Virus genome (UHGV): UHGV-1370948
DNA length: 64,000 bases
Source: a virus
Strand: one strand, 5' to 3'
How positions within the stretch are numbered: the stretch's first letter is position 1; the number at the start of each line of letters is the position of its first letter. The notes under the pieces were generated by a model that worked only from the letters and a program-made list of their open reading frames with translations, ran no database searches and was not told where the DNA came from. Shown in pieces: positions 4,147 to 60,505 of this stretch. A program made the position numbers and the translations under genes.

Positions 4147-4147
4147 A

Positions 4148-4513
4148 ATGAAAATGGGTGATCTGGCTAAAAAGCCACAAGCCGCGGAAGAAGTTTCGCA
4201 ATCCACGGAGTCAGAAGTAAAACAACCTATGCGCTCCCCGACTCGACCACAGGGAAGACCTACTCGTGGGAAGTCCAGTATCAAGAGCCGGACGATGAGC
4301 ATCGAGGATGAGTTCATCAGCCTTATCTCTGTCATGGAGAACGTTGACCGCTGGAATCGCTTCACGCGTTCAGACGTTATTCGTGCCGCCATCATGAATC
4401 TGGCCAGCGAATCGCCTGAGCGTATTGCGGAAACCATTGCCGTGCTTCGCGAGACTCCAGCGTCTGAAGCAGAAATGCGCGGCGAACAAATCCGCCGTGA
4501 GCTGGAGAAGTAG
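4148..4513 (+). CDS. small ParG-like ribbon-helix-helix partner protein
   Basis: 121 aa, disordered basic N-terminus, C-terminal RHH-like segment (RSDVIRAAIMNL), directly follows parA. Confidence 0.4.
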   Translation: MKMGDLAKKPQAAEEVSQSTESEVKQPMRSPTRPQGRPTRGKSSIKSRTMSIEDEFISLISVMENVDRWNRFTRSDVIRAAIMNLASESPERIAETIAVLRETPASEAEMRGEQIRRELEK

Positions 4514-17484: not shown

Positions 17485-19037
17485 ATGACCAGCCTGCAAC
17501 AACGCGCCGAATTACACCGTCAGATATGGGCTATTGCGAACGAGGTTCGCGGTGCCGTTGACGGATGGGACTTTAAACAATACGTCTTAGGGGCGCTGTT
17601 TTACCGTTTTATCAGTGAGAACTTCACCAGTTACATCGAAGCCGGTGATGACAGTGTTCAGTATGCCGGAATGGCTGACAGTGATATTGGTGATGAGATT
17701 AAGGACGATGCGGTCAGAACAAAGGGGTATTTTATCGCTCCAAGCCAGCTGTTCTGTAATGTGGCGAAGCGTGCCAATACGAATGACCACCTGAATGCTG
17801 ATTTAAACAGTATCTTTGTTGCGATTGAAAGCTCTGCATCCGGTTATCCGTCAGAAGCCGCCATTAAGGGACTGTTTGCTGATTTTGATACGACCAGTAA
17901 CCGGCTGGGCAGTACCGTTAAAGAGAAAAATATCCGGCTTGCTGCGGTACTGAAAGGGGTTGAGGGGCTGGCTCTCGGGGATTTTGATGCCCATCAGATT
18001 GACCTGTTCGGTGATGCCTATGAGTTTCTGATATCCAATTATGCCGCCAATGCGGGTAAGTCCGGCGGTGAGTTCTTTACCCCGCAGCATGTCTCTAAGC
18101 TGATTGCTCAGCTGGCCATGCACGGACAGACCTCCGTCAATAAAATCTATGACCCTGCGGCCGGTTCAGGTTCTCTGCTGCTTCAGGCCAAGAAACACTT
18201 TGATAATCACATTATCGAGGACGGTTTCTTTGGTCAGGAGATTAACCATACGACCTTTAACCTGGCGCGTATGAATATGTTCCTGCACAACATCAACTAC
18301 GACAAGTTTGATATCCGGTTAGGGAACACATTACTGGCCCCTGAATTTAAAGACCAGAAGCCGTTTGATGCGATTGTGTCTAACCCGCCGTACTCCGTGA
18401 AATGGGTGGGCAGTGATGACCCGACCCTGATTAACGATGACCGCTTTGCACCTGCGGGGGTACTGGCCCCGAAATCTAAAGCTGACTTTGCATTCGTACT
18501 TCACGCCCTGAATTACCTGTCTGCGAAAGGCCGTGCCGCGATTGTCTGTTTCCCCGGCATTTTCTACCGTGGCGGAGCTGAGCAGAAAATCCGACAGTAT
18601 CTGGTTGATAACAACTATGTGGAAACCGTGATATCACTGGCCCCGAACCTGTTCTTCGGTACCACCATTGAGGTTAATATTCTGGTGCTGTCAAAGCATA
18701 AGGCCGACACCAAAGTACAGTTTATCGATGCCAGCAGTCTGTTTAAGAAAGAGACCAACAACAACGTTCTTACCGATGCCCATATAGAACAGATTATGGC
18801 GGTGTTCGACAGTAAAGCCGATGCAGACTATCTGGCTAAATCTGTTACTGCTGAAGCCATTGCAGCTAATGATTACAACCTGTCTGTCAGTAGCTACGTG
18901 GAAGCCAAAGATACCCGCGAAATCGTCAACATAGCCGAACTGAATGCTGAGCTGAAAAAGACCGTCACCAGAATAGACCAGCTTCGTACTGATATTGATG
19001 CGATTGTTGCTGAGATTGAAGGTAGCGAGGTACAGGC

Positions 19038-19041
<4 letters not shown>
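17485..19041 (+). CDS. hsdM: type I restriction-modification methyltransferase subunit HsdM
   Basis: N6-adenine MTase motif IV VSNPPYS, AdoMet motif [10 protein letters not shown]. Confidence 0.9.
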
Positions 19042-20255
<1,214 letters not shown>

Positions 20256-20380
20256 CATAAACGCCCCTGCCAGAGAGAATATCTGGCTGGCAGGGTTGTT
20301 TGCATAGCTATAGCCCGATATTCACACTCTAAGGGCATCACCGTTTCATTCTTCGCAGCATAACGACAGCAGGGAGCAGC

Positions 20381-23300: not shown

Positions 23301-23503
23301 AAAACCTGAATGAGGACGCCGCCCGGCGCTACATCAGAAATTCTCTCAAGCGCGAATATGCCACGGAGAACGGCACTGCGCTGAATGAAACATTACCTAA
23401 GCTCAGTCCGCTGAACCCACAATACAGAACCAAAAAGCAGACGGTCTTTCAGAAGTTCGTGGCCTTTATCGATAAGTTCAAAGGCGTCGGTGGAAGTGTC
23501 TGA
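20381..23503 (+). CDS. hsdR: type I restriction endonuclease subunit HsdR
   Basis: 1040 aa, helicase motifs TGSGKT and DEAH-box FDECHRS. Confidence 0.9.
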
Positions 23504-24285: not shown

Positions 24286-24810
24286 ATGAAAGAATCAATC
24301 ACAAAAATTGCAATGGTTTTGGCGCTTGCCTTATCCGGGATAACGCATGAATCGTGCGCTAAAGAAACTGTATGCGCTCAGCACATCGTTGCCCCTGGCA
24401 TCGGCGTATCGTTCAGCGAGGAAGTTATGTCAAACATCAATAAGATGAATGAGGTAACTGCAGAAGGTCGTGAACTTTACGCGAGAATTGATGAACTTGC
24501 AGAACGCGACTATGAAGCGGCAAAAATGGCTGCTGAGGGGATGCGTGCAGACATCATCGGAGCCTTGGCTATTGCTGAATTTTTATTCCAGGCACTGCCA
24601 GATGTTTCGGTGATCCGTTCATTCCCCAAAGACTCGATGCAGTACAAACTTTGCAGAGCGGTCGCAGAAGCACGACACAATGCAAAAAATCTGGACAACC
24701 TGTTAAATCAGATACTGAACGTCAGCCCGTATCGTGAGTCAAACATCAACCACGATGCACTGACATTACTAGCGGAACGTGGTACAAGGGCTGCGGCTAA
24801 ATGGCATTGA
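24286..24810 (+). CDS. secreted hypothetical protein (signal peptide)
   Basis: MKESITKIAMVLALALSGITHESCA signal-like N-terminus. Confidence 0.4.
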   Translation: MKESITKIAMVLALALSGITHESCAKETVCAQHIVAPGIGVSFSEEVMSNINKMNEVTAEGRELYARIDELAERDYEAAKMAAEGMRADIIGALAIAEFLFQALPDVSVIRSFPKDSMQYKLCRAVAEARHNAKNLDNLLNQILNVSPYRESNINHDALTLLAERGTRAAAKWH

Positions 24811-25217
24811 TTGTCGAATTTAACCCGGATACAAGATCCGAGTTTTTAGACCCAACTTTCAAAAAGTACCCCGATTTAGAAAGCCAACTCAAAGCCGAAT
24901 TTATTTATTGTAAGACGAAAAACGTCACAACGAATATTTTCGGCAACGATGCCATTTTCACTTTCCCCTCTTACGCAGTAGAGGCACAGTTGTCTCGCGT
25001 TCATATCAAGCTGCCGAGCGAAGCGCCGTGGCCCCACGGCATACCCGATCGTCAAAAGAAAAGTAACACTTACCTGGTTTACGCCCAGCATATGTGGAAC
25101 CTTTCGAGCTATTCCATTCTGGCTCTTGTAACTCCAGCGCATGACCTAATGAGTGCAGCAAACACTCAACTAATTTCTCGCTTTTCAGCCTACGCAGAGG
25201 CTTTTCACTCCCGTTAA
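24801..25217 (+). CDS. hypothetical protein
   Basis: 138-aa ORF. Confidence 0.35.
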   Translation: MALIVEFNPDTRSEFLDPTFKKYPDLESQLKAEFIYCKTKNVTTNIFGNDAIFTFPSYAVEAQLSRVHIKLPSEAPWPHGIPDRQKKSNTYLVYAQHMWNLSSYSILALVTPAHDLMSAANTQLISRFSAYAEAFHSR

Positions 25218-25374: not shown

Positions 25375-26421
25375 ATGGAGGCGGCGATGTTAAATTCGTT
25401 CGAGATCGATAAAGCTTTGGAAAATTGTTCTGCTGAAACAGTTCAATATCTCCAGCGCTGCCAAACCATGACCGGCTCACAAATGATGGCCATGGATGCC
25501 GATTCGAAATTCAGTGAAGCCTTTATGTTTTTCACGCGTTTATCACTCCTTGTGACTCGGCGGCGTCCTGAGCTGGGTGTTCACTGCATTCTCATTCACG
25601 CCATGCCGGTTATCGGCGACAAAAAAGTTTCGGACATCAACCGCCTCACAGTTAACAGACTAATTAATGCCTTGGTGTTGGATGGCAAGTTAGTACAAAG
25701 CCGGCGCGTTTTTTCTGTTTTAAAACAGTTCCTTGGGTGGTGTGAGTTCCAGGGCGTGATCGAGACTTCCCCACTTGGAGCGATGTCTCTTAACAAAGTT
25801 GCTGGCGGACTGAAGCCAAGACCTCGGGAGCGTGTGTTGTCGGATGATGAGCTGGAAAAATTTTGGCACATGTGGGACTTTGCCGATGTTTCAGAGAGCA
25901 CGCGTTGGGCCGCGCGTTTCGTGCTCTGCTCAGCCAGACGGCCGGATGAAGTGCTCCGGGCTAAACGAGCTGAATTCGATCTCAATAATGATGTATGGAA
26001 TCAGGGTAGTAGGAATAAGTCTGGTCGTGAACATTCACTACCCATTAGCCCCATAATGAAGCTGTGCATTAATAAAATGATGGCCGCAGCCGGGAATAGC
26101 GAGTGGCTAGTTCCCTCCCCAAAGAATGAGACGAAGCCTGCATCCAAGGTTCTGATAGCTCAGGCATCAAGAAGAATTATGAGTAGAGATTATCTTTCCG
26201 ATAACATCCCGGCCCCCTTCGAAATCAGAGATTTACGAAGAACGGCCAGAAGCACACTCTCTCGACTTGGTGTAGAGCAAGACGTGGCTCGTAAAATCAT
26301 GAACCACAGTCTTGAGGGAATAGATCGCGTCTATGACAGACACGACTATCTTGACCGAATGTCCGAGGCAATGTCAGCATACTCTGAATTCTTAATTGAA
26401 ACATGTAAGATCAATCAGTAA
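25375..26421 (+). CDS. int: tyrosine site-specific recombinase/integrase
   Basis: C-terminal catalytic R..HxxR..Y pattern (RDLRRTARSTL..HS..Y). Confidence 0.8.
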   Translation: MEAAMLNSFEIDKALENCSAETVQYLQRCQTMTGSQMMAMDADSKFSEAFMFFTRLSLLVTRRRPELGVHCILIHAMPVIGDKKVSDINRLTVNRLINALVLDGKLVQSRRVFSVLKQFLGWCEFQGVIETSPLGAMSLNKVAGGLKPRPRERVLSDDELEKFWHMWDFADVSESTRWAARFVLCSARRPDEVLRAKRAEFDLNNDVWNQGSRNKSGREHSLPISPIMKLCINKMMAAAGNSEWLVPSPKNETKPASKVLIAQASRRIMSRDYLSDNIPAPFEIRDLRRTARSTLSRLGVEQDVARKIMNHSLEGIDRVYDRHDYLDRMSEAMSAYSEFLIETCKINQ

Positions 26422-27322: not shown

Positions 27323-29311
27323 ATGAAAAAGACTTCAGTTAAAGATATCACTAAGTTTCGCGAGGCGATTAAAAACGTCGTTTCAATGCTGGTAGCACGC
27401 AACATCCCCGTCATAGAACGTGGAGATAAGGCATATGTTGAATACAACAAAGCCGGCGAACCTCTCTGCATCTGCATACCATCAATACCCGACGACGCCA
27501 GCGACAAGTTCCTGATGGCGGTACGCGGATTCATCGATCACGAAGTCGCTCACGTCCTTTTCACAGACAGTACGAAAGCCACCAGCTTCGTCTGGAACGC
27601 CGTAGAAGACACCTTCATTGAGCGAAAAATGGGGGAGATGTTCAAAGGCTCCAGAGCAAACCTCATCAACACACAAAAGCATGTCATCGATACGGTTTTC
27701 ATTCCTAAAGAAATGGAGGCCATTGCTGAAAAGCTGGGCGATCAGACCCGTATGTTTATGGAGTTCTATCTGGTTCCCGTGCTGCGTGCTTGGAATGATC
27801 AAACGCCGTTCATCGACTACATGGAAGACCGCTGGGAGCGCGTTAAAGAGCCTGTATCAATCCTGATTAAACATGGCGTCGATAAGATGATCCCCAAAAT
27901 ATGCAGCACGAGCGATAGTGTGGCAGTGGCCTCGCTAATTGTCCGACTACTGGTCGACAAGCCAATGGAAAGTGAAGACCCAGGTGAATCAAAGGAAAAT
28001 GGGGAAGGTAAAGGAAAGTCTTCAAGCGAATCGTCTAATGACGATTGCGGTGATGGCGATCTACCCTGGCATGGCGATGATGAGCCTGAAGATAGTGAGG
28101 AAAAGGATTCCCCAGGATCAGTTGATAACGAAGAGGGGGAAACCGAATCGGCCGACGACGGAGATGGCGGCTCTTCACAGTCAGAAGAAGACAAAAAGGC
28201 TGATGGTATCGGAGACGAACCTGGCGACCCGGAAAGCGGAGCGAGGGATATACCAAAACCAACGAAAGGTGATCTGGAAAAGCTGGAGTCAACCAAACTT
28301 CCAAAAGGCGCCATGGATATGTCTATGGAAGGGGCAATGAAGATGATTATTTCCAGCGAATCCGAATTGTCGACCGGCTATCGTCCGTATGAGCGCACTT
28401 ACGACTTTATGGGGAGGCTTGAGCACGCATCGGAGTTCTTCAGAAACGTTCTGGCCACTTCGCCGAAAGGGTTCCACATGTACGGTGACGCTGATAACTA
28501 CATGGTGATCCCAAAACATGAGGCCGTCTTCAATAAGAATATTAAGCCTCTAATTGGCGATGACATCGTCGCGACACTCGCTAAAGACCTTGAGCGAACG
28601 ATAGCCAGCCAGAACCGCAATCAGTTTGTTCCAGGTCAGCGTCGCGGCCGACTGCATGGCCCAAGTCTGTATCGCCTGTCCGTCGATGATGACCGAGTTT
28701 TTCGCAAGCTGGAGGTCAAACGCGCGGTCAACTCATGCGTGCAGATTGTTATTGATATGTCTGGCTCCATGAGAGGGCAAAAAATCAAGACAGCTTGTGC
28801 AGCAGCCTACACACTGGCGGATGCATTGGCGCGTATCAACGTGAAAACTATGATAACCGGCTTCACAACATCTTCTCTGGCGATGCCTGGGAAGTCCGAG
28901 TTTAACCGCTCTGAAGCGCTTTTTCTGCCAATTATCAAGGGGTGGGAGACGCCGATATCCAGCAAACAAACGATATGCAACCTAGGTGCTCTCGCAGGTA
29001 CGATGATACTGGCTGAAAATATCGATGGAGAAAGCATACTGGCCTTGCTTCAACATTTCTCTGGCCGCCAGGAAGATCGCAAAATCATGATTGTGCTTAG
29101 TGACGGAAGCCCAGCGGCTCAGGGGCGTGGTTTGACTGGCCACCTGAAAATGGTCACAAAACAGATTGAGCAGGATACCGATATCCATCTTCTAGGGATC
29201 GGGATTTTGACAGACGCTCCGCGTCACTTCTACCGCGACAACATCTGTCTGAACAATGTTGGTGATTTAGCCGAAACGCTCATCAAGCAAATGCAACGCC
29301 TACTTTCGTAG
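27323..29311 (+). CDS. CobT-like protein: acidic low-complexity middle + C-terminal von Willebrand A (MIDAS DMSGSM) domain
   Basis: 662 aa; D/E/S-rich region aa ~210-310; vWA motif VQIVIDMSGSMRG. Confidence 0.6.
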   Translation: MKKTSVKDITKFREAIKNVVSMLVARNIPVIERGDKAYVEYNKAGEPLCICIPSIPDDASDKFLMAVRGFIDHEVAHVLFTDSTKATSFVWNAVEDTFIERKMGEMFKGSRANLINTQKHVIDTVFIPKEMEAIAEKLGDQTRMFMEFYLVPVLRAWNDQTPFIDYMEDRWERVKEPVSILIKHGVDKMIPKICSTSDSVAVASLIVRLLVDKPMESEDPGESKENGEGKGKSSSESSNDDCGDGDLPWHGDDEPEDSEEKDSPGSVDNEEGETESADDGDGGSSQSEEDKKADGIGDEPGDPESGARDIPKPTKGDLEKLESTKLPKGAMDMSMEGAMKMIISSESELSTGYRPYERTYDFMGRLEHASEFFRNVLATSPKGFHMYGDADNYMVIPKHEAVFNKNIKPLIGDDIVATLAKDLERTIASQNRNQFVPGQRRGRLHGPSLYRLSVDDDRVFRKLEVKRAVNSCVQIVIDMSGSMRGQKIKTACAAAYTLADALARINVKTMITGFTTSSLAMPGKSEFNRSEALFLPIIKGWETPISSKQTICNLGALAGTMILAENIDGESILALLQHFSGRQEDRKIMIVLSDGSPAAQGRGLTGHLKMVTKQIEQDTDIHLLGIGILTDAPRHFYRDNICLNNVGDLAETLIKQMQRLLS

Positions 29312-29409
29312 CCGTTTTTTTGGGCAAGGATGATAAGTAAATACTTATTTCCTTGTCTGTTATATATAAGTATCATTGACACATCAGAACTACTTCAAAA
29401 GGAAAACAC

Positions 29410-30660
29410 ATGTCGGTCGAATTGCAGAACAAAACAGTCGCTGAACAAGAAAAATCTCGCGAGATCGAAGAAAAGCCTATTTTGTGCAAATGGTGTGGCG
29501 GCGAGACCCATCATGTCGGTTCTCATTTCATTGGAAAAAAATGCTCTAGCATCCCGAAAGAGCACGAAAACAAGACGCCTAATGAATTGATGAAAATCTA
29601 TGTTGCTGCATTTCCTGAAGCCCCGACTATGTCTGCAGCTGCCGCCAAACGTCTGAAAGAGCACCAGGTCAAAAAGAAAGAAGAGCCATCTGTGACTCAC
29701 GTCGGATATGCCGGTTTCGAAGACTACATGGTCGAAAAGGTTGCAGTGCATGAAATACTCGGTCTCGATGCTGACTTATTGAAGACGGCATCTGGCGAAC
29801 CTTTGCGCATCACCGTAAACATCAACAAACCATTCCCGGAATTCGTGCCAAAAGCGAATCCTGACTATGTGTTCGGCGACATCGAGTTGCTTAAAGACGT
29901 GCTTATGATGATCGAGATGCGTATCCCTGGGTATCTATGGGGTCACGCAGGAACCGGCAAGAGCACGCTACCAACTCAGCTTTGCGCTCGACTAAACCGC
30001 CCTATCATCCGTGCGCAGCACACCGCGTCCACTGAAGAGTCGCATATCTGCGGGCAAATTCTTGTGCGCAGTGGTGCGACTTATTTCGAGCCAGGTCTTC
30101 TGGCAAGTGCAATGCGTAACGGGTGGGTTTATCTGGCAGATGAATATGATTTCGCGTTCCCGCAAATCCTTGGCGTTTACCAGCCAGTGTTGGAAGGCGA
30201 ACCACTGATCATCAAAGAAGCGACCCCGGAGTGGCGCTACGTCGAACCGCATAAACGATTCGCTTTCATCGGAACTGGCAACACCAATGGTTCCGGTGAT
30301 GAAACTGGATTGTATCAGGGCACGAATATCCAGAACGCAGCTAACTTCTCTCGTTTCGGCATCGTCTCACACGTCAAGTACATGGACAGGTCTCATGAGT
30401 CCGCGATGCTGGAGAAAATGGGTTTACCGAAAGTGTACGCGACCATGCTTATCGATTTCGCAACCCGAATCCGTAGCGGGTATGAGGCAGGAAATATTAG
30501 CCAACCCATCGGGCCACGTGAACTGCGCAATGCAGCAGTGATTGGAATGGCGCACAAAAACTTCAAGAAAGGCGTGACGAAGTCTTTCATCAATAAATTA
30601 CCGTCCACCAGCGCGGTATCCGCAACCGAGATAGCGCAGCGCATCTTTGGTGATGAATAA
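29410..30660 (+). CDS. CobS/MoxR-like AAA+ ATPase
   Basis: Walker A GHAGTGKST, Walker B VYLADEYDF; adjacent to vWA partner. Confidence 0.6.
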   Translation: MSVELQNKTVAEQEKSREIEEKPILCKWCGGETHHVGSHFIGKKCSSIPKEHENKTPNELMKIYVAAFPEAPTMSAAAAKRLKEHQVKKKEEPSVTHVGYAGFEDYMVEKVAVHEILGLDADLLKTASGEPLRITVNINKPFPEFVPKANPDYVFGDIELLKDVLMMIEMRIPGYLWGHAGTGKSTLPTQLCARLNRPIIRAQHTASTEESHICGQILVRSGATYFEPGLLASAMRNGWVYLADEYDFAFPQILGVYQPVLEGEPLIIKEATPEWRYVEPHKRFAFIGTGNTNGSGDETGLYQGTNIQNAANFSRFGIVSHVKYMDRSHESAMLEKMGLPKVYATMLIDFATRIRSGYEAGNISQPIGPRELRNAAVIGMAHKNFKKGVTKSFINKLPSTSAVSATEIAQRIFGDE

Positions 30661-30841
30661 AGGTTGCTTTGGCTCAGCATTGACAGCCTCGGAAAAAAGC
30701 GAGATCTGCGCCCGATGTGGTGACAGATCTCGCTGTCATGATGAAGCCCGTAAAAACATTGAGGCTATGTTTGGGAAGTTTGTCGGATTCCCGATTGACA
30801 GCGTTAAAAATAAAAAAAGAACCACGAAGGAAAGCACATGA
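30653..30841 (+). CDS. small Cys-rich (zinc-ribbon-like) protein
   Basis: CxxC..C.H pattern, ATGA-coupled to dnaE part 1. Confidence 0.25.
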   Translation: MNKGCFGSALTASEKSEICARCGDRSRCHDEARKNIEAMFGKFVGFPIDSVKNKKRTTKEST

Positions 30842-33210
30842 AGGCATTAATGGTACGCACCGATTTTTCTCTTGGTGAATCGGCGCTGAAAGCAAGCCGC
30901 GTAGCGAAGGCTGCGAAAGAGTTAGGTTATTCAGCCATTATCAGCGCAGACACAATGAGTCTGGCTTCAATCATCCCGCTGCAGCAGTCGGCTGGTGATG
31001 ACCTGGCTGTTATTTGCGGCGTCCGTCTGGTCATTAGTGACAATCCGCTTTATGAAGGCATGGTCAGAAAAGCCAAAGAGGAAGGTACAGAGATTCCGGT
31101 ATGCAAGCCTGGTCGTCTGTACAGCTTCACAGCGTTGATAAAGAACGATGAAGGGTATAAAGATCTGTGTGAGCTGATGACGTTGGGCAACCGCCGCGAA
31201 CAGTTTTACTTTTTCCCGCGCATCTCGTTGGAGCAGCTGGCCGAAACGTATTCAAAGGGCAACATCCTTCTACTGACGTCTGATCGCGATAGCATATTTC
31301 ATCGGCAGGACTTCGTTAAAATCCTGACTAAATTGCTGGAGGTTGGTGGGCGTGGCAACTTCTACAGCGTTGTGTATCCGATTGCTACGCCTCTCTACGA
31401 TCAGTTGAACATGAAGGCGATGAAGGTGGCTAATGCGCTTAAAATCGCCCCTGTTGCGTTCTATCCAGCTTATTACGAGAAAGAAGAGGACGCAGACCTG
31501 CGCGACATTGCGCATATGGTTATCAATAACATCAAAACGGATCAGCCATATCGTTTTCACATCCCACACCAGCGCGACAACTCAATCCAGAACCGCAAGC
31601 ATTTGCTGGTTCGCTTGATGGAATTCTCGAAACGCATGGGTATCGAGGGTATTAGTTCCGCGATGGTTAACGAGACTCAGGACGAAATCATTGCGGCGTG
31701 CAGCTGGCGCTGGCATGAGATGCCGGTCAGTCTGCCAGTTATGGCGGAAGATGAGGGTGATTCGTTGACGCGAATGGCGGCAGAAGGATTGAAGCGTCGT
31801 TTAACAACGCTTGAATTTGGTTGGAAGCCACCAGCAGAGCAGTATCAGGTTTACATCAACCGTTTACGTTATGAGTTGAGTGTTCTGAAAAAGCTGGGAT
31901 TTTGCGGCTACTTCCTGATGGTTGAAAATCTACTGTCATGGGCGCGTAAACAGGATATCCCGGTCGGGCCGGGTCGCGGATCGTCCGCCGGTTCACTTGT
32001 TGCGTGGGCGATTGGGATCACCAACATCGACCCGCTACGCCACGGTCTCCTGTTTGAGCGCTTCATCAACCCTGAACGTCTGGATTTGCCTGACGCGGAT
32101 CTGGACTTTAGCCAGGCGCTCCGCCCCCGCGTTCTCGAATATCTTGAAGAGCATTACGGCGAAAAATATGTGGCTGGCATTCCAAACTTCTCTTATCTGG
32201 GTATGGCGTCGGCACTACGTGACACGGCACGTATCTACGGCGTGTCTACCGAAGATATGGCGGTATCTAAGCAGTTGAAGCAATTCGATGATGAGGGATT
32301 ATCTCTTGAAGAGACTCGTGAGCAGCTGGGCGCCCTCGACAAATACGCGAAAGCAAACCCGGAAGCATTCGACGCCGCGTGCAAACTCCAGTCACTGATG
32401 CGCAGCTATGGTAAGCACGCCGCGGGTGTCATCGTTTCTGGCGTACCACTGACTGAGCGAACACCAGTTGAATTACGCAACGGGGTGCGCTGTATCGCGT
32501 TTGACAAGCGTTTCTGTGAATCTATGGGGCTTATCAAGCTGGACGTGTTAGGGCTGGCTACGCTCGATCTACTGGCTCTCGCTAAACGCTACATCAAAGA
32601 GAACGAGGGGATCGACGTTAACCTCGACGCAATCCCTCTCGATGATAAACGCGTCCTTGAGGGTATGGCGTTGGGTGAAACAACTGGCGTGTTCCAGTTC
32701 GAGTCTGGCGGCATGAGAAACCTGCTTAAAAACCTTGGAAGCGGCATCAAACCAATGTCGTTTGAAATGGCCGTCGCCACTACCGCGCTATATCGCCCAG
32801 GCCCAATGCAGTCCGGCATGATGGATACCTACGTCAGCGTTGCGCGTGGTTATGAGGACGCTCACTCACTTCACCCAAGCCTTGACGAATTGACCAAAGA
32901 AACCAACGGGGTTTTGGTCTATCAGGAACAAATCATGAAAGCGTCGCAGATCCTCGCCGGCTTCTCTCTGTCGGAAGCAGATATGGTAAGGAAGGCGATT
33001 GGTAAAAAAGACATCGAGAAGATGAAAAAGATTGGTGCCGACTTTTCAGATCGTGCGCAGCTTGGTTGGTTGGAAGTCCAGACTGACGACGGCCAGATTG
33101 TCACTGTTCATCGCGCCGCGCTTCATCCGTGCTCTGATGGTAAGAAGCGCACTGTCGAGCAAGCCATGAAAGAAGATGCCGACATTATTGAATTTGACAC
33201 CTCTAAGTAA
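30838..33210 (+). CDS. dnaE: DNA polymerase III alpha (DnaE-type) N-terminal part: PHP + palm/thumb
   Basis: GPGRGSSAGSLVAWAIGIT and catalytic LPDADLDF motifs. Confidence 0.85.
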   Translation: MKALMVRTDFSLGESALKASRVAKAAKELGYSAIISADTMSLASIIPLQQSAGDDLAVICGVRLVISDNPLYEGMVRKAKEEGTEIPVCKPGRLYSFTALIKNDEGYKDLCELMTLGNRREQFYFFPRISLEQLAETYSKGNILLLTSDRDSIFHRQDFVKILTKLLEVGGRGNFYSVVYPIATPLYDQLNMKAMKVANALKIAPVAFYPAYYEKEEDADLRDIAHMVINNIKTDQPYRFHIPHQRDNSIQNRKHLLVRLMEFSKRMGIEGISSAMVNETQDEIIAACSWRWHEMPVSLPVMAEDEGDSLTRMAAEGLKRRLTTLEFGWKPPAEQYQVYINRLRYELSVLKKLGFCGYFLMVENLLSWARKQDIPVGPGRGSSAGSLVAWAIGITNIDPLRHGLLFERFINPERLDLPDADLDFSQALRPRVLEYLEEHYGEKYVAGIPNFSYLGMASALRDTARIYGVSTEDMAVSKQLKQFDDEGLSLEETREQLGALDKYAKANPEAFDAACKLQSLMRSYGKHAAGVIVSGVPLTERTPVELRNGVRCIAFDKRFCESMGLIKLDVLGLATLDLLALAKRYIKENEGIDVNLDAIPLDDKRVLEGMALGETTGVFQFESGGMRNLLKNLGSGIKPMSFEMAVATTALYRPGPMQSGMMDTYVSVARGYEDAHSLHPSLDELTKETNGVLVYQEQIMKASQILAGFSLSEADMVRKAIGKKDIEKMKKIGADFSDRAQLGWLEVQTDDGQIVTVHRAALHPCSDGKKRTVEQAMKEDADIIEFDTSK

Positions 33211-33280
33211 TAAGTAAAATGTGAAAACAAGTTGTTTTTTAGTTTCTGAAAACAACTTGTTTAATGACAAAGGAAAACAC

Positions 33281-34441
33281 ATGAAGATTACTAAAATCAT
33301 CTCAGAGAAGCCCGGACTCAGCGAATCAAAAGCAAAAGAGGTCTGGGATGCTTTCGAGAAATTCGGGTCGTATGGCTTTAACAAATCACACGCCGTGGCC
33401 TATACCGCAATCAGCTACCAGGCAATGTATCTGAAGACTCACCATCCGGCTGCATTCTTCGCCGCCGCACTGACAATTCAGGATGATGAAAAACACCGAG
33501 CTGTTGTAAAGGATGCACTGGCACGCGGCGTTATTGTGATGCCGCCAGACATCAATCTCTCAACTGACCGCATCGAAATAGTCGAACTGAAGGATGGCCG
33601 GGCGGCGCTATATGCCCCCTTCTCAGCTGTCAAAGGTTGTTCTGAAAAAGGCAGCTTAGCCATTATGCGTGCTCGCGAGCGTGTAGGTGGTAAGTTTGAG
33701 TCGCGAGCACAATTCAAGGAAGCGATAGAGGCCAGACTTTGCAATATCCGAGTTCAGGAGGCTCTGGAAGCCGTTGGTGCATTTGCCAGTATTGAGCCTG
33801 GCAGCGAACCGGCGATGGCAGAATCCCGCCGCAAGGCTCAATCAGAGCTGATGGGAAGCCTCATTATCGATGCGGTAAAAGTGAGTCGCCCGTTCGAGAT
33901 GAATCCGAAACGCCAGGCAGAAGTGTCGATGTTGATGGAAGAGCTGCGTAAAGAGGTCGGGGTGGGCGAAGATCTGGTTACTCCGCATATCGGCGTATCG
34001 CCAAAAATAATGATTATCCTCGACACAGCAAACGGCAACGATATCAGGACGGGGATCTTCATGGAGAACGGCTACGAAGATTTTAAGGCGAAAATGCTCG
34101 TTAATGGCGATCTGCGCATGAGCGAGGTGTACGTTACCGGCGTCATTAAGCAAGATAAGAAGTTGCCACTGTCCCGCGACGCAGAGAACACCTACATCGA
34201 GTTTATGAAGAAAGAGCTTGAGCTGGTTAAACCAACCTACGTCCTGACGTGTGGTCGCCTATCGGCCAGTCTCTTCAACGACAAAACCAAGGCAACGGAT
34301 TTGGTCGGACGTAAGGAATACTTTGGCGCAATGGACTTGACCGTGTTTTACGGATTCAATCCGGGCATACTTCACTTCAGACCGGAAGAAGGTGAGAAAT
34401 TGGAACTTATTATGGAAGACATTAAGGAAGCATTGTCATGA
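33281..34441 (+). CDS. dnaE: DNA polymerase III alpha (DnaE-type) C-terminal part: fingers/C-terminal domains
   Basis: FNKSHAVAYTAISYQAMYLKTHHPAAFFAA motif; own TIR AAAGGAAAACACATG at 33281. Confidence 0.8.
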   Translation: MKITKIISEKPGLSESKAKEVWDAFEKFGSYGFNKSHAVAYTAISYQAMYLKTHHPAAFFAAALTIQDDEKHRAVVKDALARGVIVMPPDINLSTDRIEIVELKDGRAALYAPFSAVKGCSEKGSLAIMRARERVGGKFESRAQFKEAIEARLCNIRVQEALEAVGAFASIEPGSEPAMAESRRKAQSELMGSLIIDAVKVSRPFEMNPKRQAEVSMLMEELRKEVGVGEDLVTPHIGVSPKIMIILDTANGNDIRTGIFMENGYEDFKAKMLVNGDLRMSEVYVTGVIKQDKKLPLSRDAENTYIEFMKKELELVKPTYVLTCGRLSASLFNDKTKATDLVGRKEYFGAMDLTVFYGFNPGILHFRPEEGEKLELIMEDIKEALS

Positions 34442-40427: not shown

Positions 40428-40586
40428 ATGCCGCTCCTGTATTTGACCACGTCGATTTTTCTGCTCTTTGATAGTGTTTTTGTTGGGAGTTTTCGCAAAG
40501 CACTGGCTCCCGTGAATGGTCGGATCATAGACGTACTCGTGGGCGTTTTTCTGGCCATCGCTTTAGGGAAGTGCTTCGCATCATGA
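40428..40586 (+). CDS. small membrane protein (52 aa) not in ORF track
   Basis: MPLLYLTTSIFLLFDSVFVG..VLVGVFLAIALGKCFAS; ATGA overlap with next gene. Confidence 0.3.
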   Translation: MPLLYLTTSIFLLFDSVFVGSFRKALAPVNGRIIDVLVGVFLAIALGKCFAS

Positions 40587-40921
40587 AAAAGATTATTGCA
40601 GCCTCTATGATCCTCTTCTCATCCGTGGCGTTTGGAGAGAGTGAGACCGTCATGAAGTGCCAGATGAACATTATGCGTATAAGCAGCGGAAAAATGATCG
40701 GAGATCCGCATCAGTTGGCGGAGGCGATTCTGACAGCGGATACGCGACAGTTCTATGCTGTCATCGGTGAGCGAATCATCAGTTCACCAATACTTTCAGA
40801 GCAAAAAGGTGGTTTAGCCGCATACCAAGCTGGCGCCGCTTACTTTATGCGTAAAGACACCTTTGGTGTTATTTATGATGACTTCGGATATGTGTTTGAT
40901 GAATGTGAAAAGGTTGCGTAA
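40583..40921 (+). CDS. secreted hypothetical protein
   Basis: MKKIIAASMILFSSVAFGE signal peptide. Confidence 0.4.
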   Translation: MKKIIAASMILFSSVAFGESETVMKCQMNIMRISSGKMIGDPHQLAEAILTADTRQFYAVIGERIISSPILSEQKGGLAAYQAGAAYFMRKDTFGVIYDDFGYVFDECEKVA

Positions 40922-41136
40922 TGAACAACATCGCTAACAGCATGGAAATTGAAAAAATAAGACCATACTGGCGTGCAAAAGGATTTACTCGCCCGGAAGA
41001 CTTCTCAACAAGACTGGAGCGTGACGACTGCCAGATTGTGTACCGCTATCGTTCGTGGCAGATGATTGAAATCGGCGAGACAAAAGCAAAGGCTAAATCA
41101 CATCGCCTCTACAACCTTCTGTCTTCAATCACCTGA
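40921..41136 (+). CDS. hypothetical protein
   Basis: 71-aa ORF. Confidence 0.3.
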   Translation: MNNIANSMEIEKIRPYWRAKGFTRPEDFSTRLERDDCQIVYRYRSWQMIEIGETKAKAKSHRLYNLLSSIT

Positions 41137-41244
41137 CATTAGATAAATTGTTAGTGGTTACTAACCCTTTGATATCAACATCTCACAGGTTAGTAACCAC
41201 TAGGGGGCTAAATGGAACCCTCTAAAAATGAATCCTGATCGAAG

Positions 41245-41501
41245 TCACCGCTGACGGCATAGTGTACCGCTAACAGCATATCAATTACCGCTGGTAACAT
41301 ACATTGAGCCGCTGACAGCATATCCACAACCGCTGACAGCATACGAAATAAAAAAGCCCTCTATTCGAGGGCTTAAATTTGGTGTGAATAAACGATTCCA
41401 GACCTTCCTAATCACCGCTGACAGCATATCTAATAGTCAAATCACCGCTGGCAGCATACCATTTGCCGTTCACAGCATATATTGCACCGCTCAGAGCATA
41501 T
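41245..41501. repeat. nine direct iterons (consensus ~CACCGCTGACAGCATA) downstream of repA (incA-like)
   Basis: Copies at 41245, 41265, 41287, 41308, 41329, 41412, 41442, 41464, 41486; hairpin 41354-41374 splits the array. Confidence 0.8.
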
Positions 41502-42613
41502 CAAAGCAACTTCAGACCGTTACTAAGTATCTCAATTAGCTTTATATTCTCAGGCGTCAAATCTGCAGAAAGTTCAGCTATCTTCTTGATCATGTTTTGT
41601 TTTACGACGTCCAGCTCGCCGCTCTCTTGTGGCCCTTCCACTTGCTCTGCAGGCTTCTCAGGCTTCGACGGTTTCTCTTCACCAATGACTTTAAGTTTCG
41701 GGTTGCGTCCATGAATCTGAATAAATACAGAGCGACCACGCTTCACCTCTGAGTAATCGAGGTAGCCAAGCTCTTTAAGAGACTTCAGACCGTTTCGAAT
41801 GGTCTGATTTTGGGAGCTGATGCTTGAGCTATTCAGATTCAACCTCGCACGCAAACGAGCCAGAGATATTGGCGCCGGCCGCGCCGGAAGACTTTCAATG
41901 AAGGTGTATAGCGCCTGGGCGGTTTCTTTACGTGGAAGTTTGTTGATGACCTTCAGTTGGAGAAGAACTTTGTGGTCAAACCGGTATAGCTCTGACAGCT
42001 TTGGTTCGGCGTGAAATATGATGGTGTTATTTTTCTCATTGTAATCCACGCTATTCACCAGATGAACCATGAGCAGAGATATCTTGTTCGAGCCGTCCAC
42101 GTTCTTCTCTTCGTATGTGCGCTGGAACGAAAGCGTTGTGCGCATTATCTTCAGCAGGCTGTTCGTAATCCTGTCTCGCAGCGTCTTGCGTATCTGGGAA
42201 GATGGATACCCACAGAACTTGGCAAACTTCGTGATGCTTAGCTCAACGCGCCCACTGGCCTCCCCATACTCGGCAAGTGATCGGACGACACCAACCCACG
42301 TCTTGAAGTCGTGATCCATATCGAGACGTGGACCGGTTATTTTGATATCGGAATAACCCTCAGATCTCGCAACCTCCAGTTGCACCAGTTCTTTTGAGGC
42401 GTCTATCTGGTTGGAGTTATTTCGTTTACTATTCTTCGTGCCTTTGAGCGTGGGAACGAACAATCCAAGTCTCATCAACGCAATGGGTTGTACGGTATTG
42501 TTGCTGTTAGGGGTGAGGTCGCCTGTGAATAACGCCGGAACACTTTCGTCGATCGCGTCATCATCATCGATTAACGGTATGTTTTCTTTCTTCTTTTTTT
42601 TGCCTGTGGACAT
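41501..42613 (-). CDS. repA: iteron-binding replication initiator RepA (P1 RepA-like)
   Basis: NSNNTVQPIALMRLGLFVP and YTFIESLP segments recalled from P1 RepA; flanked by iterons on both sides. Confidence 0.65.
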   Translation of the reverse strand: MSTGKKKKKENIPLIDDDDAIDESVPALFTGDLTPNSNNTVQPIALMRLGLFVPTLKGTKNSKRNNSNQIDASKELVQLEVARSEGYSDIKITGPRLDMDHDFKTWVGVVRSLAEYGEASGRVELSITKFAKFCGYPSSQIRKTLRDRITNSLLKIMRTTLSFQRTYEEKNVDGSNKISLLMVHLVNSVDYNEKNNTIIFHAEPKLSELYRFDHKVLLQLKVINKLPRKETAQALYTFIESLPARPAPISLARLRARLNLNSSSISSQNQTIRNGLKSLKELGYLDYSEVKRGRSVFIQIHGRNPKLKVIGEEKPSKPEKPAEQVEGPQESGELDVVKQNMIKKIAELSADLTPENIKLIEILSNGLKLL

Positions 42614-42632
42614 GTGGACACCTCATTGCTTA

Positions 42633-42734
42633 AACCGCTGGTAGCATACTTCATTTACCGTTAGCAGCATACACAAAACAGTCCACAGCATATCGCACGC
42701 CGCTCGCAGCATATATTTTTCCGCTGACAGCATA
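42633..42734. repeat. five direct iterons upstream of repA (origin iterons)
   Basis: Copies at 42633, 42656, 42679, 42698, 42720. Confidence 0.75.
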
Positions 42735-42775
42735 CGCCAATGGTCTTTCAGAGCAGGCGTGGCGCGGGTTGCGAG

Positions 42776-42856
42776 GATCGGGGATCTCTTTTGATCTAAT
42801 GTATGATCTATATAGGGATCTTATTATTGGGATCTATCCAGTTGATATGTGGATAA
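42776..42856. promoter_or_regulatory. origin-like AT-rich region with six GATC sites in 59 bp and consensus DnaA box TGTGGATAA (42848-42856)
   Basis: GATC at 42776, 42783, 42793, 42805, 42817, 42831. Confidence 0.6.
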
Positions 42857-42929
42857 CTTTTCAAGGCATTTTAGTACGTGAGCCTTGTTTTTGGTTTAAT
42901 GTGATAAAAAATACAAGGCCAAGCATCAA

Positions 42930-43577
42930 ATGAATATCAAACAGTCGCGTTACATCAGAAGACTTGAAGATGGGACTTACACCATCAAGTCTGACTCTAA
43001 ACTGGTTGCTTCCAGGGACATGTGTGAGGTTTGCGGCATCAAAACCGCCTGCCCGATCTACAAAACCCGGGCATCACTGCTGGAACAAGGTGCGTCATTT
43101 GAAATCAACACATGCGCACGATACGTTCCACTCATTTCCTTCAGAAAACCTTATCTTGGCTTAAAGGAAGCTTACTTCAACACAATGCGCAGCGGCGTAA
43201 CCTGGGTCAACCGCGTCAGTGAAAATTCTGTCGTTTGTCTGGTTGGCGCTGAGAACGGCGAGATAATTCGCTTTGCTCGCGTCGCGAAGGTATTCTCTGG
43301 CCCCGTCGACAAAATGCTCAAGATAAACGCCAGGTTCAACCATCTGTGTCTCGGCGGCAAAACGCAGGATGAGGTAAGAACCGTTATTCAAAAGTCATAC
43401 GGTCACTTCTTAAAAGAAGACAGCTTGCTGACGGTGATCTACCTGAAAAGCCTAAAGCACGAGTACGATTGGGAGTATCATACCGAAGAAGAAATCCGAA
43501 TGATGGAGGACATCACCCCTCCAGATAACGTCGTGAGTCTCGATGAGTTAAGACGCAGGTTCGAAGAGAAGATTTAA
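42930..43577 (+). CDS. hypothetical protein
   Basis: 215-aa ORF. Confidence 0.4.
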   Translation: MNIKQSRYIRRLEDGTYTIKSDSKLVASRDMCEVCGIKTACPIYKTRASLLEQGASFEINTCARYVPLISFRKPYLGLKEAYFNTMRSGVTWVNRVSENSVVCLVGAENGEIIRFARVAKVFSGPVDKMLKINARFNHLCLGGKTQDEVRTVIQKSYGHFLKEDSLLTVIYLKSLKHEYDWEYHTEEEIRMMEDITPPDNVVSLDELRRRFEEKI

Positions 43578-59872: not shown

Positions 59873-60505
59873 GTGAACGGTTCTCAGAAAATAAAAAACA
59901 GAGAGCGCGATGGCAATCTACGCGACCTCTGGCGAACGCCTCTGTGGTTGTTTCATGCTTTCGAAGTTTATCTCGGCATGAAGTTCCAGGTCGACGTCGC
60001 GTGCAACAAAGACAATGCGATCCTGCCTGACTTTATCGGCGTAGAACGTGACGCGCTAAAGTCCAGCTGGTGCGAAGCCGGTACAATCGCATTCCTCAAC
60101 CCGCCCTACTCCAAAATCAAACCATGGATAGACGCCGCGGCGCGTGAACAGGTCAATGGTGTTACAACTGTCATGCTGGTTCCTCAGTCCCTCGACACTC
60201 AGTGGTATCTGGACGTTAAGCGCAGCGCGAATCAGACCGTACTTATTGTTGGCGGTCGCGTCGCTTTTATGGAGCCAGATACAACGCTGGGATTGGTTGA
60301 AGTTCGCGAGAATACTGGCGGTAGCATGTTGCTGGTCTTCCGGGGCTTCTATGGCGCTGCTGGACACCAGACGACGGAGATCGACATCGGCGTGATGAAA
60401 TTGTTGGGTGGCTATGATCCACTAACGGCGAAACGGAAGCCACGTAAGAAGCCTGTTAAGAAAGCATCTCCACCCCTTAATAAAAAGACTTTAAAAGCGC
60501 TTTAA
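59873..60505 (+). CDS. dam: phage-type DNA N6-adenine methyltransferase (Dam family)
   Basis: DLWRTP N-terminal motif, catalytic FLNPPYS; GTG start. Confidence 0.7.
   Translation: MNGSQKIKNRERDGNLRDLWRTPLWLFHAFEVYLGMKFQVDVACNKDNAILPDFIGVERDALKSSWCEAGTIAFLNPPYSKIKPWIDAAAREQVNGVTTVMLVPQSLDTQWYLDVKRSANQTVLIVGGRVAFMEPDTTLGLVEVRENTGGSMLLVFRGFYGAAGHQTTEIDIGVMKLLGGYDPLTAKRKPRKKPVKKASPPLNKKTLKAL

Follow-up and report, generated by a model that had tools for sequence, protein, structure and literature searches.

Anatomy of a predicted P1/RepFIB-family plasmid replicon in a Klebsiella SSU5-like phage-plasmid

The plasmid-prophage replicon of P1 (K02380; IncY) consists, in order, of tandem DnaA boxes, GATC heptamers, a GC-rich spacer, five iterons phased at ~21 bp, repA, and nine further iterons. 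A DnaA-type box is also found between the origin iterons and repA. The RepFIB replicon of F/P307 follows the same plan; in F, TTATCCACATATCCAG is succeeded by about 50 bp holding five GATC sites, and then come iterons, repA, and further repeats. Because F RepFIB has this layout, the design is family-wide and not specific to P1. Two groups of elements that are closer to the one described here have also been typed. The SSU5 supercommunity was typed as IncFIB (PMC7969092). The pKPHS1 group was defined as iteron-regulated, with membership in IncpKPHS1 requiring >96% nucleotide identity to pKPHS1 repA, and the pKPHS1 replicon was described as having four iterons and no known domain (PMC6735626).

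We found that the window, that is, the whole 64-kb stretch of DNA that we analyzed, is a Klebsiella pneumoniae SSU5-like phage-plasmid containing a replicon with the same order of elements as P1 (Table 1). The window is 100% identical to circular plasmids of ~110 kb, and the replicon is present at at least 95% identity in 24 complete circular, non-mobilizable Klebsiella plasmids of ~108-113 kb. It is the only typed replicon in both of the plasmid records whose typing we read (NZ_CP068974.1 and NZ_CP097685.1), and its MOB-suite class is rep_cluster_2469, not IncFIB. An initial annotation of this DNA had argued that the element can be maintained as a plasmid prophage, and the circular Klebsiella plasmids that carry the same DNA and are typed with this replicon bear this out. 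The sequence anatomy, the homology to P1 and RepFIB, the conservation among relatives and the occurrence in circular plasmids were all observed directly, and on this basis the region is very probably the lysogenic (plasmid-state) theta replicon of the phage-plasmid, built on the P1/RepFIB plan.

Table 1. Features of the predicted replicon and of other candidate maintenance functions in the window
Feature	Position	Strand	Remarks
Left-end DnaA box pair (predicted)	42839..42856	-	perfect box and abutting degenerate box
AT-rich block with six GATC (Dam) sites	42776..42834		mostly (A/T)AGATC(C/A) heptamers
GC-rich spacer, 63% GC, with CCGCGCCACG	42738..42775		between GATC block and iterons
Five origin iterons (incC equivalent)	42634..42735	-	spacing 23, 21, 21, 21 bp
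Tandem TGTCCACA TGTCCACA, DnaA-box-like	42603..42623	-	overlaps repA Shine-Dalgarno sequence and start codon
repA, predicted iteron-binding replication initiator, 370 aa	41501..42613	-	open reading frame, P1 RepA homology, Rep3_N
Proximal downstream iterons, four (incA equivalent)	41415..41500	-	directly after repA stop codon, inside repA transcript
Perfect TTATTCACA DnaA-box match	41383..41391	-	gap of downstream array
Intrinsic terminator of repA	41344..41374	-	AAGCCCTCGAATAGAGGGCTT then TTTTATTT
Distal downstream iterons, five (incA equivalent)	41248..41343	-	spacing 19-21 bp
15-bp perfect inverted repeat, 21-nt spacer	41152-41166 / 41188-41202		16th pair mismatched
Partition module: ParA ATPase, 222 aa (3478..4146), and 121-aa partner gene	3478..4513	+	profile matches
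Phage-type N6-adenine DNA methyltransferase, Dam family	59873..60505	+	PF05869, 4.8e-34

The initial annotation had placed an initiator gene on the minus strand with iterons on both sides, and we found the 370-aa open reading frame and both arrays. The reading frame is intact, with an ATG start codon and GAGG as the Shine-Dalgarno sequence. An HMM search and an alignment to P1 RepA had been suggested as checks on this protein. The HMM search gave a match to Pfam Rep3_N (PF01051, WH1) at residues 120-239 that was above the cutoff (37.2 bits compared to 22.4; E 4.7e-9), and the alignment gave 48% identity across 279 aa (E 6e-89), with homology spanning the whole P1 protein. Both of the motifs that had been attributed to P1 RepA, NSNNTVQPIALMRLGLFVP and YTFIESLP, occur in the protein and match P1 RepA in the alignment. 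The match to Pfam Rep3_C (PF21205, WH2) at residues 250-296 was under the cutoff (14 bits compared to 21.1; E 0.061); conservation between the phage protein and P1 RepA is good in this segment. RepA also matched phrog_775 (2e-129). It is 46-48% identical to RepA of P1, 47-53% identical to that of SSU5, and 48-53% identical to those of RepFIB/IncFIB plasmids, with more than 5000 plasmid records matching; P7 is also a match. Because of the 48% identity to P1 RepA, we regard the family of this protein as settled. Searches of the PDB with RepA alone and with a seven-sequence profile gave no meaningful match, no NCBIfam model matched RepA, and an hhalign comparison of the RepA profile to F RepE (2.7% probability) gave no tie to a solved WH1-WH2 structure.

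RepA has four parts: a variable N-terminal tail (residues 1-31), a core homologous to P1 RepA (residues 32-309), a variable linker (residues 310-335) and a conserved two-helix C-terminus (residues 336-370). A single-sequence AF2 model (pLDDT 39) was confident only at residues 332-369, which it shows as two helices. Relatives that differ by 17-25% in their DNA have 88-97% conservation of the core, including 88-89% in K. oxytoca, pKPHS1, pJN2-26 and PhiR41_1. Compared to P1 RepA, the phage protein is longer by 31 residues at the N-terminus and by about 60 at the C-terminus. Part of the C-terminal extension is shared with some IncFIB RepA proteins, which align to the phage protein up to residue 348.

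Only 20 nt separate the last origin iteron from the ATG of repA (compared to about 55 nt in P1), so the promoter of repA is expected to be in or upstream of the iterons. A consensus scan of positions 41000-43000 gave no sigma-70-like promoter, and no convincing -35/-10 pair could be picked out by eye among the iterons. The predicted terminator of repA divides the downstream array into four and five iterons. Its stem is kept in K. oxytoca with a different loop, and is not kept in pJN2-26.

There are 14 copies of one 15-bp iteron, RTATGCTGYNAGCGGT, flanking repA. Five are upstream and nine are downstream, as the initial annotation had stated, and all 14 share one orientation. The 14-mer core reads CCGCTGACAGCATA on the plus strand. 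Upstream cores start at 42635, 42658, 42679, 42700 and 42721, and downstream cores at 41248, 41267, 41288, 41309, 41330, 41415, 41445, 41466 and 41487. One copy, the third origin iteron (42679-42692), is degenerate, with four mismatches. When up to two mismatches were allowed, 11 of the 12 iteron matches in the whole 64 kb fell in the replicon region. Shuffled sequence had a mean of 0.58 matches, and none of 100 shuffles reached 12. The repeat that is the presumed target of RepA can also be written TATGCTGYNAGCGGT. We considered a lone, inverted copy with one mismatch at 40754-40767 as a possible fifteenth iteron and rejected it; it is outside the conserved design and is missing from K. oxytoca and pJN2-26.

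The number of origin iterons and the degenerate third copy are kept in relatives, which have eight or nine downstream iterons in the same orientation. In K. oxytoca, pKPHS1, pJN2-26 and PhiR41_1, both the layout (five plus eight or nine direct iterons) and the iteron consensus are kept. This is so despite only 75% nucleotide identity of repA (pKPHS1) and ~79% identity of the DNA surrounding the origin to a Klebsiella relative, which indicates selection on the repeats. The gene and the repeats occur together and are conserved together, and RepA is predicted to bind the iterons of its own origin.

The left end of the origin contains a perfect DnaA box, TTATCCACA (42848-42856, minus strand), found where the initial annotation had it, and a degenerate box, TATCAACTG (42839-42847). 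The two boxes line up with the tandem DnaA boxes in P1, annotated in K02380 as a DnaA binding site at 729-746, and their position is kept in K. oxytoca, pJN2-26, PhiR41_1, SSU5 and F RepFIB. At the right end, the tandem TGTCCACA is the counterpart of the left box pair. Each copy has two mismatches as a 9-mer, the tandem is 76% identical to positions 42838-42858, and it aligns with the right-hand box of P1, CTATCCACA. In K. oxytoca and pJN2-26 the right-end box reads GTATCCACA (one mismatch). All three of the perfect TTATNCACA sites in the 64 kb are inside the replicon (P about 5e-5); two of the three are not conserved in relatives. The perfect box in the gap of the downstream array is absent at that position in K. 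oxytoca and pJN2-26, and its role is therefore doubtful. A DnaA-box-like site that had been noted at 41321 is present (ATATCCACA, 41320-41328, one mismatch), but it too is not conserved in relatives.

Next to the left box pair are six GATC sites, starting at 42776, 42783, 42793, 42805, 42817 and 42831. As first annotated, there are six in 59 bp and the block is AT-rich (34% GC compared to 48% for the window). Nowhere else in the window are GATC sites packed as densely. A Poisson model predicts 0.009 clusters of this kind in 64 kb, and a count of six was not attained in any of 300 shuffles. In the alignment, the block falls on the Dam sites annotated in P1, and relatives hold five to seven GATC sites there. 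It is presumably both the region where the DNA opens and the target of methylation control. P1 and all four of the close relatives that were aligned have an identical CCGCGCCACG in the GC-rich spacer; SSU5 does not.

The likeness to P1 oriR that was claimed for this region held for the order of the elements and for the origin, which aligns nucleotide for nucleotide with P1 oriR over the DnaA boxes, the GATC heptamers and the CCGCGCCACG spacer. In addition, the downstream iterons of P1 begin 2 nt past the repA stop codon, and the phage array likewise begins directly after the stop. The likeness did not extend to the downstream iterons themselves. In P1, three are direct and six are inverted. 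In contrast, all nine in the phage replicon are direct, and they are split 4+5 by the intrinsic terminator. The iterons also differ in sequence (GATGTGTGCTGGAGGGAAA in P1 compared to TATGCTGTCAGCGGT here), as does the number of GATC sites (five in P1 and six here). The phage replicon has one consensus left-hand DnaA box, and its right-hand boxes are weak and overlap the ribosome binding site and ATG. Lastly, the virion is that of an SSU5-like siphovirus, whereas P1 is a myovirus. The iteron of F RepFIB, of the ATAAACTGTAGT type, is also unlike that of the phage replicon, and the downstream repeats of F are mostly inverted. F RepFIB adjoins a tyrosine recombinase in a conjugative plasmid, whereas the replicon described here is in a phage genome. 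Since F RepFIB likewise has tandem DnaA boxes and five GATC sites, and IncFIB RepA proteins are 48-53% identical to the phage protein, the label 'P1-type' is no apter than 'RepFIB-type'.

The IncpKPHS1/IncFIB(pKPHS1) elements (pKPHS1, pJN2-26 and p2 of Kp1604) have the same iteron consensus, 5+4+5 layout, origin organization and flanking genes as the phage replicon. The pKPHS1-type elements also have the same size and host, and the RepA core is 89% identical. Compared to pKPHS1, repA is 75% identical in nucleotide sequence (over 1029 nt) and 80% identical in protein sequence, and identity drops to about 35% in the linker and in the first 31 residues. At the nucleotide level, repA falls below the >96% threshold for IncpKPHS1, and megablast gave no alignment of repA to the pKPHS1 type, while the IncpKPHS1 iteron motif and an SSU5-like backbone are both present. 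The four iterons and absence of a known domain reported previously (PMC6735626) are an under-description; the pKPHS1 replicon has 14 iterons, and the RepA described here has a Rep3_N domain. Salmonella phage SSU5 has a RepA that is 47% identical and has a C-terminal extension, and its neighboring genes are syntenic on both sides. Its origin block shares the DnaA box, GATC cluster and iterons with the phage replicon. In contrast, the SSU5 iteron, AACCACTGTAGAGAG, is unlike that of the phage replicon, the origin block is tandemly duplicated, and the downstream repeats are partly inverted.

Based on the established biology of P1 and RepFIB, we infer for this replicon that RepA binds the iterons and represses its own gene, that replication depends on DnaA and Dam, and that handcuffing takes place. 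RepA monomers would bind the five 21-bp-phased origin iterons (42634-42735) and host DnaA would bind the boxes at both ends of the origin. Together, RepA and DnaA would open the AT-rich GATC block (42776-42834), and the replisome would be loaded there. The origin would fire only when all six GATC sites are fully methylated by Dam, and hemimethylation after passage of the fork would silence the origin for a time. RepA would repress its own synthesis, because the promoter is expected to lie in or upstream of the iterons. Because the consensus scan gave no sigma-70-like promoter, this proposed autoregulation draws on geometry and analogy. The nine downstream iterons (41248-41500) would keep copy number low by titrating RepA and by handcuffing with the origin iterons, and in trans this array would be expected to exert incompatibility. 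Partition would come from the separate small ParA module (3478-4513).

It is highly improbable that the RepA/iteron unit is an inherited relic and that the element is maintained from another origin using its own replication proteins. The window does encode a DnaB-family helicase (5628..6989), a primase-like protein (7080..8243) and Pol III alpha (30838..34441). Because of these genes a separate origin for lytic growth must exist, and in principle the plasmid state might draw on it too. The failure of the scan to detect a repA promoter would also fit with a relic. However, the analogous phage replication functions of P1 serve lytic growth only. Furthermore, repA is intact and its core has been conserved while the DNA of relatives diverged, the iterons, GATC cluster and DnaA box pair keep their number and position among relatives, and neither of the two identical or near-identical plasmids whose records were read was typed with another replicon. 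It is very unlikely that the nine repeats are a second origin or a centromere-like site and not a negative control of copy number. The downstream array lacks a GATC cluster, an AT-rich block for opening and a GC spacer. The tandem duplication of the SSU5 origin block, the lack of centromere repeats next to parA, and the presence in the array of the perfect TTATTCACA and the ATATCCACA site could be taken to favor such a role, but these DnaA-like sites are not conserved. The place of the array after the repA stop codon and the count of nine are as in P1 incA, for which a role in copy control is established. F RepFIB also has repeats downstream of repA, and these are incompatibility determinants.

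The nucleotide similarity to P1 oriR in the DnaA/GATC/spacer segment might also be explained by recent recombination with a P1-like phage, and not by vertical descent within the IncFIB/SSU5 group. We consider this explanation extremely improbable. F RepFIB also conserves this segment of the origin, the phage RepA resembles that of P1 no more than those of SSU5 or IncFIB plasmids (identities above), the iteron sequence is unlike that of P1, and the genes on either side show synteny with SSU5-group elements and not with P1.

Other genes in the window could contribute to maintenance of the plasmid state. The parA module that had been invoked in support of a plasmid prophage exists, but it is 37 kb from the replicon and is of the small type Ib ParA kind. 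That is, it is neither adjacent to the replicon nor of the P1 type, which is an adjacent type Ia parABS. ParA matched NF041546 (ParA_partition) at 3.6e-34, below the model cutoff, and phrog_164 (ParA-like), and the partner gene matched phrog_5111. A search of the DNA around parA gave no convincing centromere repeats. We also found no parA-parB-parS directly downstream of the incA-type array; small convergent ORFs are there instead. The Dam methylase that the initial annotation listed for the phage is assigned to the Dam family by PF05869 and TIGR01712 (109.2 bits; cutoff 97), and its specificity for GATC is putative. P1 likewise encodes an adenine methylase.

An inverted repeat, initially annotated as 16 bp and within the downstream array, exists but is 15 bp and outside the array. 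It is 46 bp past the last iteron and 16 nt past the stop codon of a convergent ORF (40921..41136). As DNA, 41152..41202 has a predicted folding energy of -13.6 kcal/mol (z -3.9). Both arms are recognizable in relatives, and pairing is kept only partly. We searched the rest of the window for its palindrome, GGTTASTAACC, as an operator or centromere motif and found none. We rejected the repeat as an intrinsic terminator (it is without a T-run) and as a Tus/Ter-like site (it does not fit the Ter core); in addition, the stem is not maintained in relatives.

The RepA lineages of rep_cluster_2469 and pKPHS1 have an identical iteron and an identical 5+4+5 layout at 75% nucleotide identity, and they diverge mainly in the first 31 residues and in the linker that precedes the conserved two-helix C-terminus. 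One could imagine, although we think it unlikely, that the N-terminus and tail set the specificity of RepA-RepA pairing such that the two lineages are compatible and, separately, that the inverted repeat at 41152-41202 is an undescribed cis element. If true, compatibility of the lineages would be an escape from incompatibility that bypasses DNA-binding specificity.

The replicon is a complete and ordinary iteron-controlled unit of the P1/IncFIB family, of a kind already known and catalogued, and it raises no new biological question. Its main value is in annotation: the window is a plasmid-prophage, and its maintenance in lysogeny very probably relies on a standard, iteron-controlled IncFIB/P1-family origin that is probably dependent on Dam and DnaA. 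For replicon typing, this variant misses both the 'IncFIB' label and the >96% criterion for IncpKPHS1, and recognizing it should be useful for predicting incompatibility among co-circulating Klebsiella phage-plasmids, some of which have resistance genes. Several existing annotations can also be corrected. Replicons of the pKPHS1 type have 14 iterons and not four, RepA has been wrongly named 'Replication helicase', and the 'attL/attR' sites annotated in pJN2-26 are iterons.

We confirmed the observed features and found support for their interpretation. The replicon is divergent but already catalogued; it belongs to a family that is very well known and occurs in a known phage-plasmid group. The ORF listing and a reading of the sequence showed that the minus-strand initiator gene proposed in the initial annotation is genuine, with an ATG start and GAGG just 5' to it (Table). 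The two P1 RepA motifs noted initially, NSNNTVQPIALMRLGLFVP and YTFIESLP, are both in the 370-aa protein. Pfam gave a match to Rep3_N above the curated cutoff (residues 120-239) and a weak match to Rep3_C. Rep3_N is the WH1 domain of iteron-binding initiators. By BLASTP, the protein was 48% identical over 279 residues (E 6e-89) to P1 RepA (annotated record K02380), which was covered nearly end to end. By tblastn, identity was 42-46% to P1, P7 and other P1-like phages, 47% to SSU5, and 77-79% to a group of SSU5-like phages from Klebsiella and E. coli. Matches in plasmids numbered more than 5000 records, chiefly IncFIB plasmids (48-53%). The match to PHROG 775 was 2e-129. The P1 RepA family carries the label 'replication helicase' in PHROG 775 and in RefSeq NC_005856.1, NC_050152.1 and NC_018843.1. 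This label is wrong; RepA is an origin-binding initiator and not a helicase.

Compared with P1 RepA, the protein has 31 additional residues at the N terminus and ~60 at the C terminus. In the C-terminal tail, a variable linker leads into a ~35-residue conserved segment (...LTPENIKLIEILSNGLKLL) that is common to SSU5-group proteins. Only this segment was confidently modelled, as two helices, in a single-sequence AlphaFold prediction of RepA.

Table. Coordinates of the replicon and of other features in the window
Feature	Position	Strand	Remark
repA	41501..42613	-	370 aa
Iterons downstream of repA (starts)	41248, 41267, 41288, 41309, 41330, 41415, 41445, 41466, 41487		nine
Iterons upstream of repA (starts)	42635, 42658, 42679, 42700, 42721		five
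Intrinsic terminator	41374..41354 + T-run	repA strand	good; between downstream iterons four and five
GATC cluster	42776-42834		six sites
DnaA box TTATCCACA	42848-42856	-	
DnaA-like site ATATCCACA	41320-41328		
Inverted repeat	41152-41166 / 41188-41202		15 bp, perfect
Iteron-like site TATGCTGTCATCGG	40754-40767	+	one mismatch, inverted; inside ORF 40571..40921
Small ParA	3478..4146		
Type I restriction-modification (M, S, R)	17485..23503	+	complete
YafO-family toxin	24801..25217	+	
Tyrosine recombinase	25375..26421	+	
662-aa protein, then AAA ATPase	27323..30660	+	ATPase 416 aa
Pol III alpha homologue	30838..33210 and 33221..34441	+	790 and 406 aa
phrog_2105 protein	42930..43577	+	215 aa

The nine downstream and five upstream iterons were found as initially annotated. 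The 14-nt core is CCGCTGACAGCATA on the plus strand, that is, TATGCTGTCAGCGG read in the direction of repA. A column count of the 14 copies gave a conserved core of RTATGCTGYNAGCGGT, with spacing mostly 21 bp; the copy at 42679 is degenerate (four mismatches). When the whole 64-kb window was scanned, 11 of 12 matches with two or fewer mismatches were within the replicon region. Dinucleotide shuffles had a mean of 0.58 matches and never reached 12. Because of the position of the terminator, the first four downstream iterons are the transcribed 3' end of the repA mRNA. There is also a lone iteron-like site ~480 bp past the array. It was not found in the K. oxytoca and pJN2-26 loci and is therefore probably fortuitous or lineage-specific.

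The six GATC sites are the densest GATC cluster in the window (Poisson expectation 0.009 per window; 0 of 300 shuffles reached six). GC content is 48% overall but 34% in this block and 63% in the spacer that comes next. The DnaA box TTATCCACA is present. The window has three perfect TTATNCACA matches, and none lies outside the 1.8-kb replicon (P about 5e-5). The DnaA-like site described in the downstream array exists, but its position differs from that first given and it is not conserved in relatives; it arises from an iteron-spacer junction. A second DnaA-type site, at the repA-proximal end of the origin, had been overlooked. This site, AGGTGTCCACATGTCCACAGG, consists of two tandem TGTCCACA units across the Shine-Dalgarno sequence and ATG, and is 76% identical to the DnaA box pair at the left end (repeat D8). 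It aligns with the P1 right-hand box CTATCCACA; the version in K. oxytoca and pJN2-26 is GTATCCACA.

The likeness to P1 oriR extends to base-level homology. The reverse complement of 42614-42900 aligned with P1 700-1005, including the tandem DnaA boxes (TTATCCACA-TATCAACTGG in the window, TTATCCACATTATCCACTGG in P1), and the homology also takes in the heptamer series (GGATAGATCC...AATAAT...AGATCC) and the spacer CCGCGCCACG. The order of elements is that annotated in K02380: DnaA boxes, Dam sites, spacer, five iterons, repA, and nine iterons. In both, five phased iterons follow the spacer, differing in sequence, and the downstream iterons start directly after the repA stop codon. In contrast to P1, which has three direct and six inverted downstream iterons, those in the window are all direct and are divided 4+5 by the terminator. 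In addition, the window has six GATC sites rather than five, its left-hand DnaA boxes are one consensus and one degenerate, its weak right-hand boxes overlap the ribosome binding site and ATG, it has no adjacent par locus, and its host phage is of another type.

RepFIB of plasmid F has the same layout: TTATCCACATATCCAG, then a 50-bp stretch with five GATC sites, iterons, repA, and further repeats downstream of the gene. Thus, the architecture belongs to the whole P1/RepFIB family, and the label 'P1-type' is accurate, not specific. SSU5 (JQ965645.1) differs in having an unrelated iteron (AACCACTGTAGAGAG), two tandem blocks of DnaA box, GATC cluster and iterons upstream of repA (825-1044 and 1200-1456), and downstream repeats that are partly inverted, as in P1.

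The iteron consensus and the DnaA-GATC-spacer block are the same in K. oxytoca pRHBSTW-00452_5, pKPHS1, pJN2-26 and E. coli phage PhiR41_1. These relatives have 5 upstream and 8 or 9 downstream iterons, every one in the direction of repA. repA is 75% identical in nucleotides to that of pKPHS1, and among relatives the RepA core is 88-89% identical and the N terminus and linker about 30-45%. Judged from these alignments, retention of iteron sequence, number and phase against the divergence of repA is good evidence of function. In pKPHS1 (NC_016838.1), the upstream iterons are at 200-300 and the nine downstream (4+5) at 1419-1684. The pJN2-26 record (MZ779062.1) has two 20-bp attR/attL 'phage attachment sites' (1378-1397 and 2648-2667) on either side of the RepB gene. 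They coincide with iteron matches (1380-1393 and 2650-2663), indicating that they are mislabelled replicon repeats. The RepB coding sequences of pJN2-26 and pKPHS1 are annotated about 40 codons too early and start inside the iterons.

The plasmid-prophage state proposed initially is documented as an episomal form, since the 1.8-kb segment matches public complete plasmid records. Two K. pneumoniae plasmids, NZ_CP097685.1 and NZ_AP024176.1, carry it at 100% identity, and identity is 95% or more in 24 Klebsiella plasmids, all complete, non-mobilizable and about 108-113 kb long. MOB-suite typing, read for two records, gave a single replicon, 'rep_cluster_2469', in each. Tail-fibre, helicase, primase, Pol III alpha, recombinase, nrdAB, thymidylate synthase and Dam genes are also in the window, in an order typical of SSU5-like elements, and SSU5, pJN2-26 and PhiR41_1 share synteny with the window in the genes on either side of the replicon. 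IncFIB accounts for most typable phage-plasmids, mainly of the SSU5 supercommunity (Pfeifer et al. 2021, PMC7969092), and SSU5 (IncFIB) replication genes are already in typing tools (2025 preprint, 10.1101/2025.09.12.675607). The paper that defined IncpKPHS1 (PMC6735626) described one iteron-regulated replicon, with no more than four iterons reported, all downstream of repA, and a RepA without a known domain. We found 5+9 iterons and a Rep_3 domain in pKPHS1, so that description is incomplete. Group membership requires repA identity above 96% (PMC6735626). By nucleotide identity (75%), the window repA is of another type than IncpKPHS1, with a shared iteron. What we add is annotation-level detail.

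By homology, the AT-rich GATC block would be opened by RepA monomers bound to the five origin iterons together with DnaA bound to the boxes on either side. Dam methylation would license the origin and hemimethylation would delay re-firing. The gap between the last iteron and the ATG is only 20 nt, placing the repA promoter in or upstream of the iterons, and bound RepA should therefore repress repA; a consensus promoter scan found no promoter in the replicon region. The nine downstream iterons would titrate RepA and handcuff origins, giving low copy number and incompatibility. The parA module, cited initially in support of plasmid maintenance, is present but 37 kb from the replicon. Partition would use the small ParA and a 121-aa partner, not a P1-like parABS.

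The inverted repeat near the downstream array is real, but has perfect arms of 15 rather than 16 bp and lies 46 bp outside the array. It is far above chance and folds well as DNA (-13.6 kcal/mol, z -3.9), has no T-run, and its motif occurs nowhere else in the window. In K. oxytoca, pJN2-26 and PhiR41_1, and loosely in SSU5, the two arms can be recognised, with pairing only partly kept. The repeat may serve as a protein site or as a barrier that separates the replicon from the convergent operon ending at 41136.

The phrog_2105 gene is transcribed divergently from the origin, and its product had no Pfam hit. Given the synteny between this gene and the replicon in SSU5, pJN2-26, PhiR41_1 and K. 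oxytoca, it could be functionally linked to replication. The 662-aa protein has an acidic low-complexity centre and forms a CobT/CobS-like pair with the AAA ATPase, which is called 'porphyrin biosynthetic protein' in pKPHS1. As an 'AAA family ATPase' the latter could be mistaken for ParA, but it is not a partition ATPase. The Pol III alpha homologue is in two ORFs in different frames, 10 nt apart, and is annotated as split elsewhere in the gene in pKPHS1; the split could be genuine or could reflect a frameshift or a pseudogene. The restriction-modification system, the toxin gene and the tyrosine recombinase are in the accessory part of the element, and the recombinase is a candidate for multimer resolution in the plasmid state.
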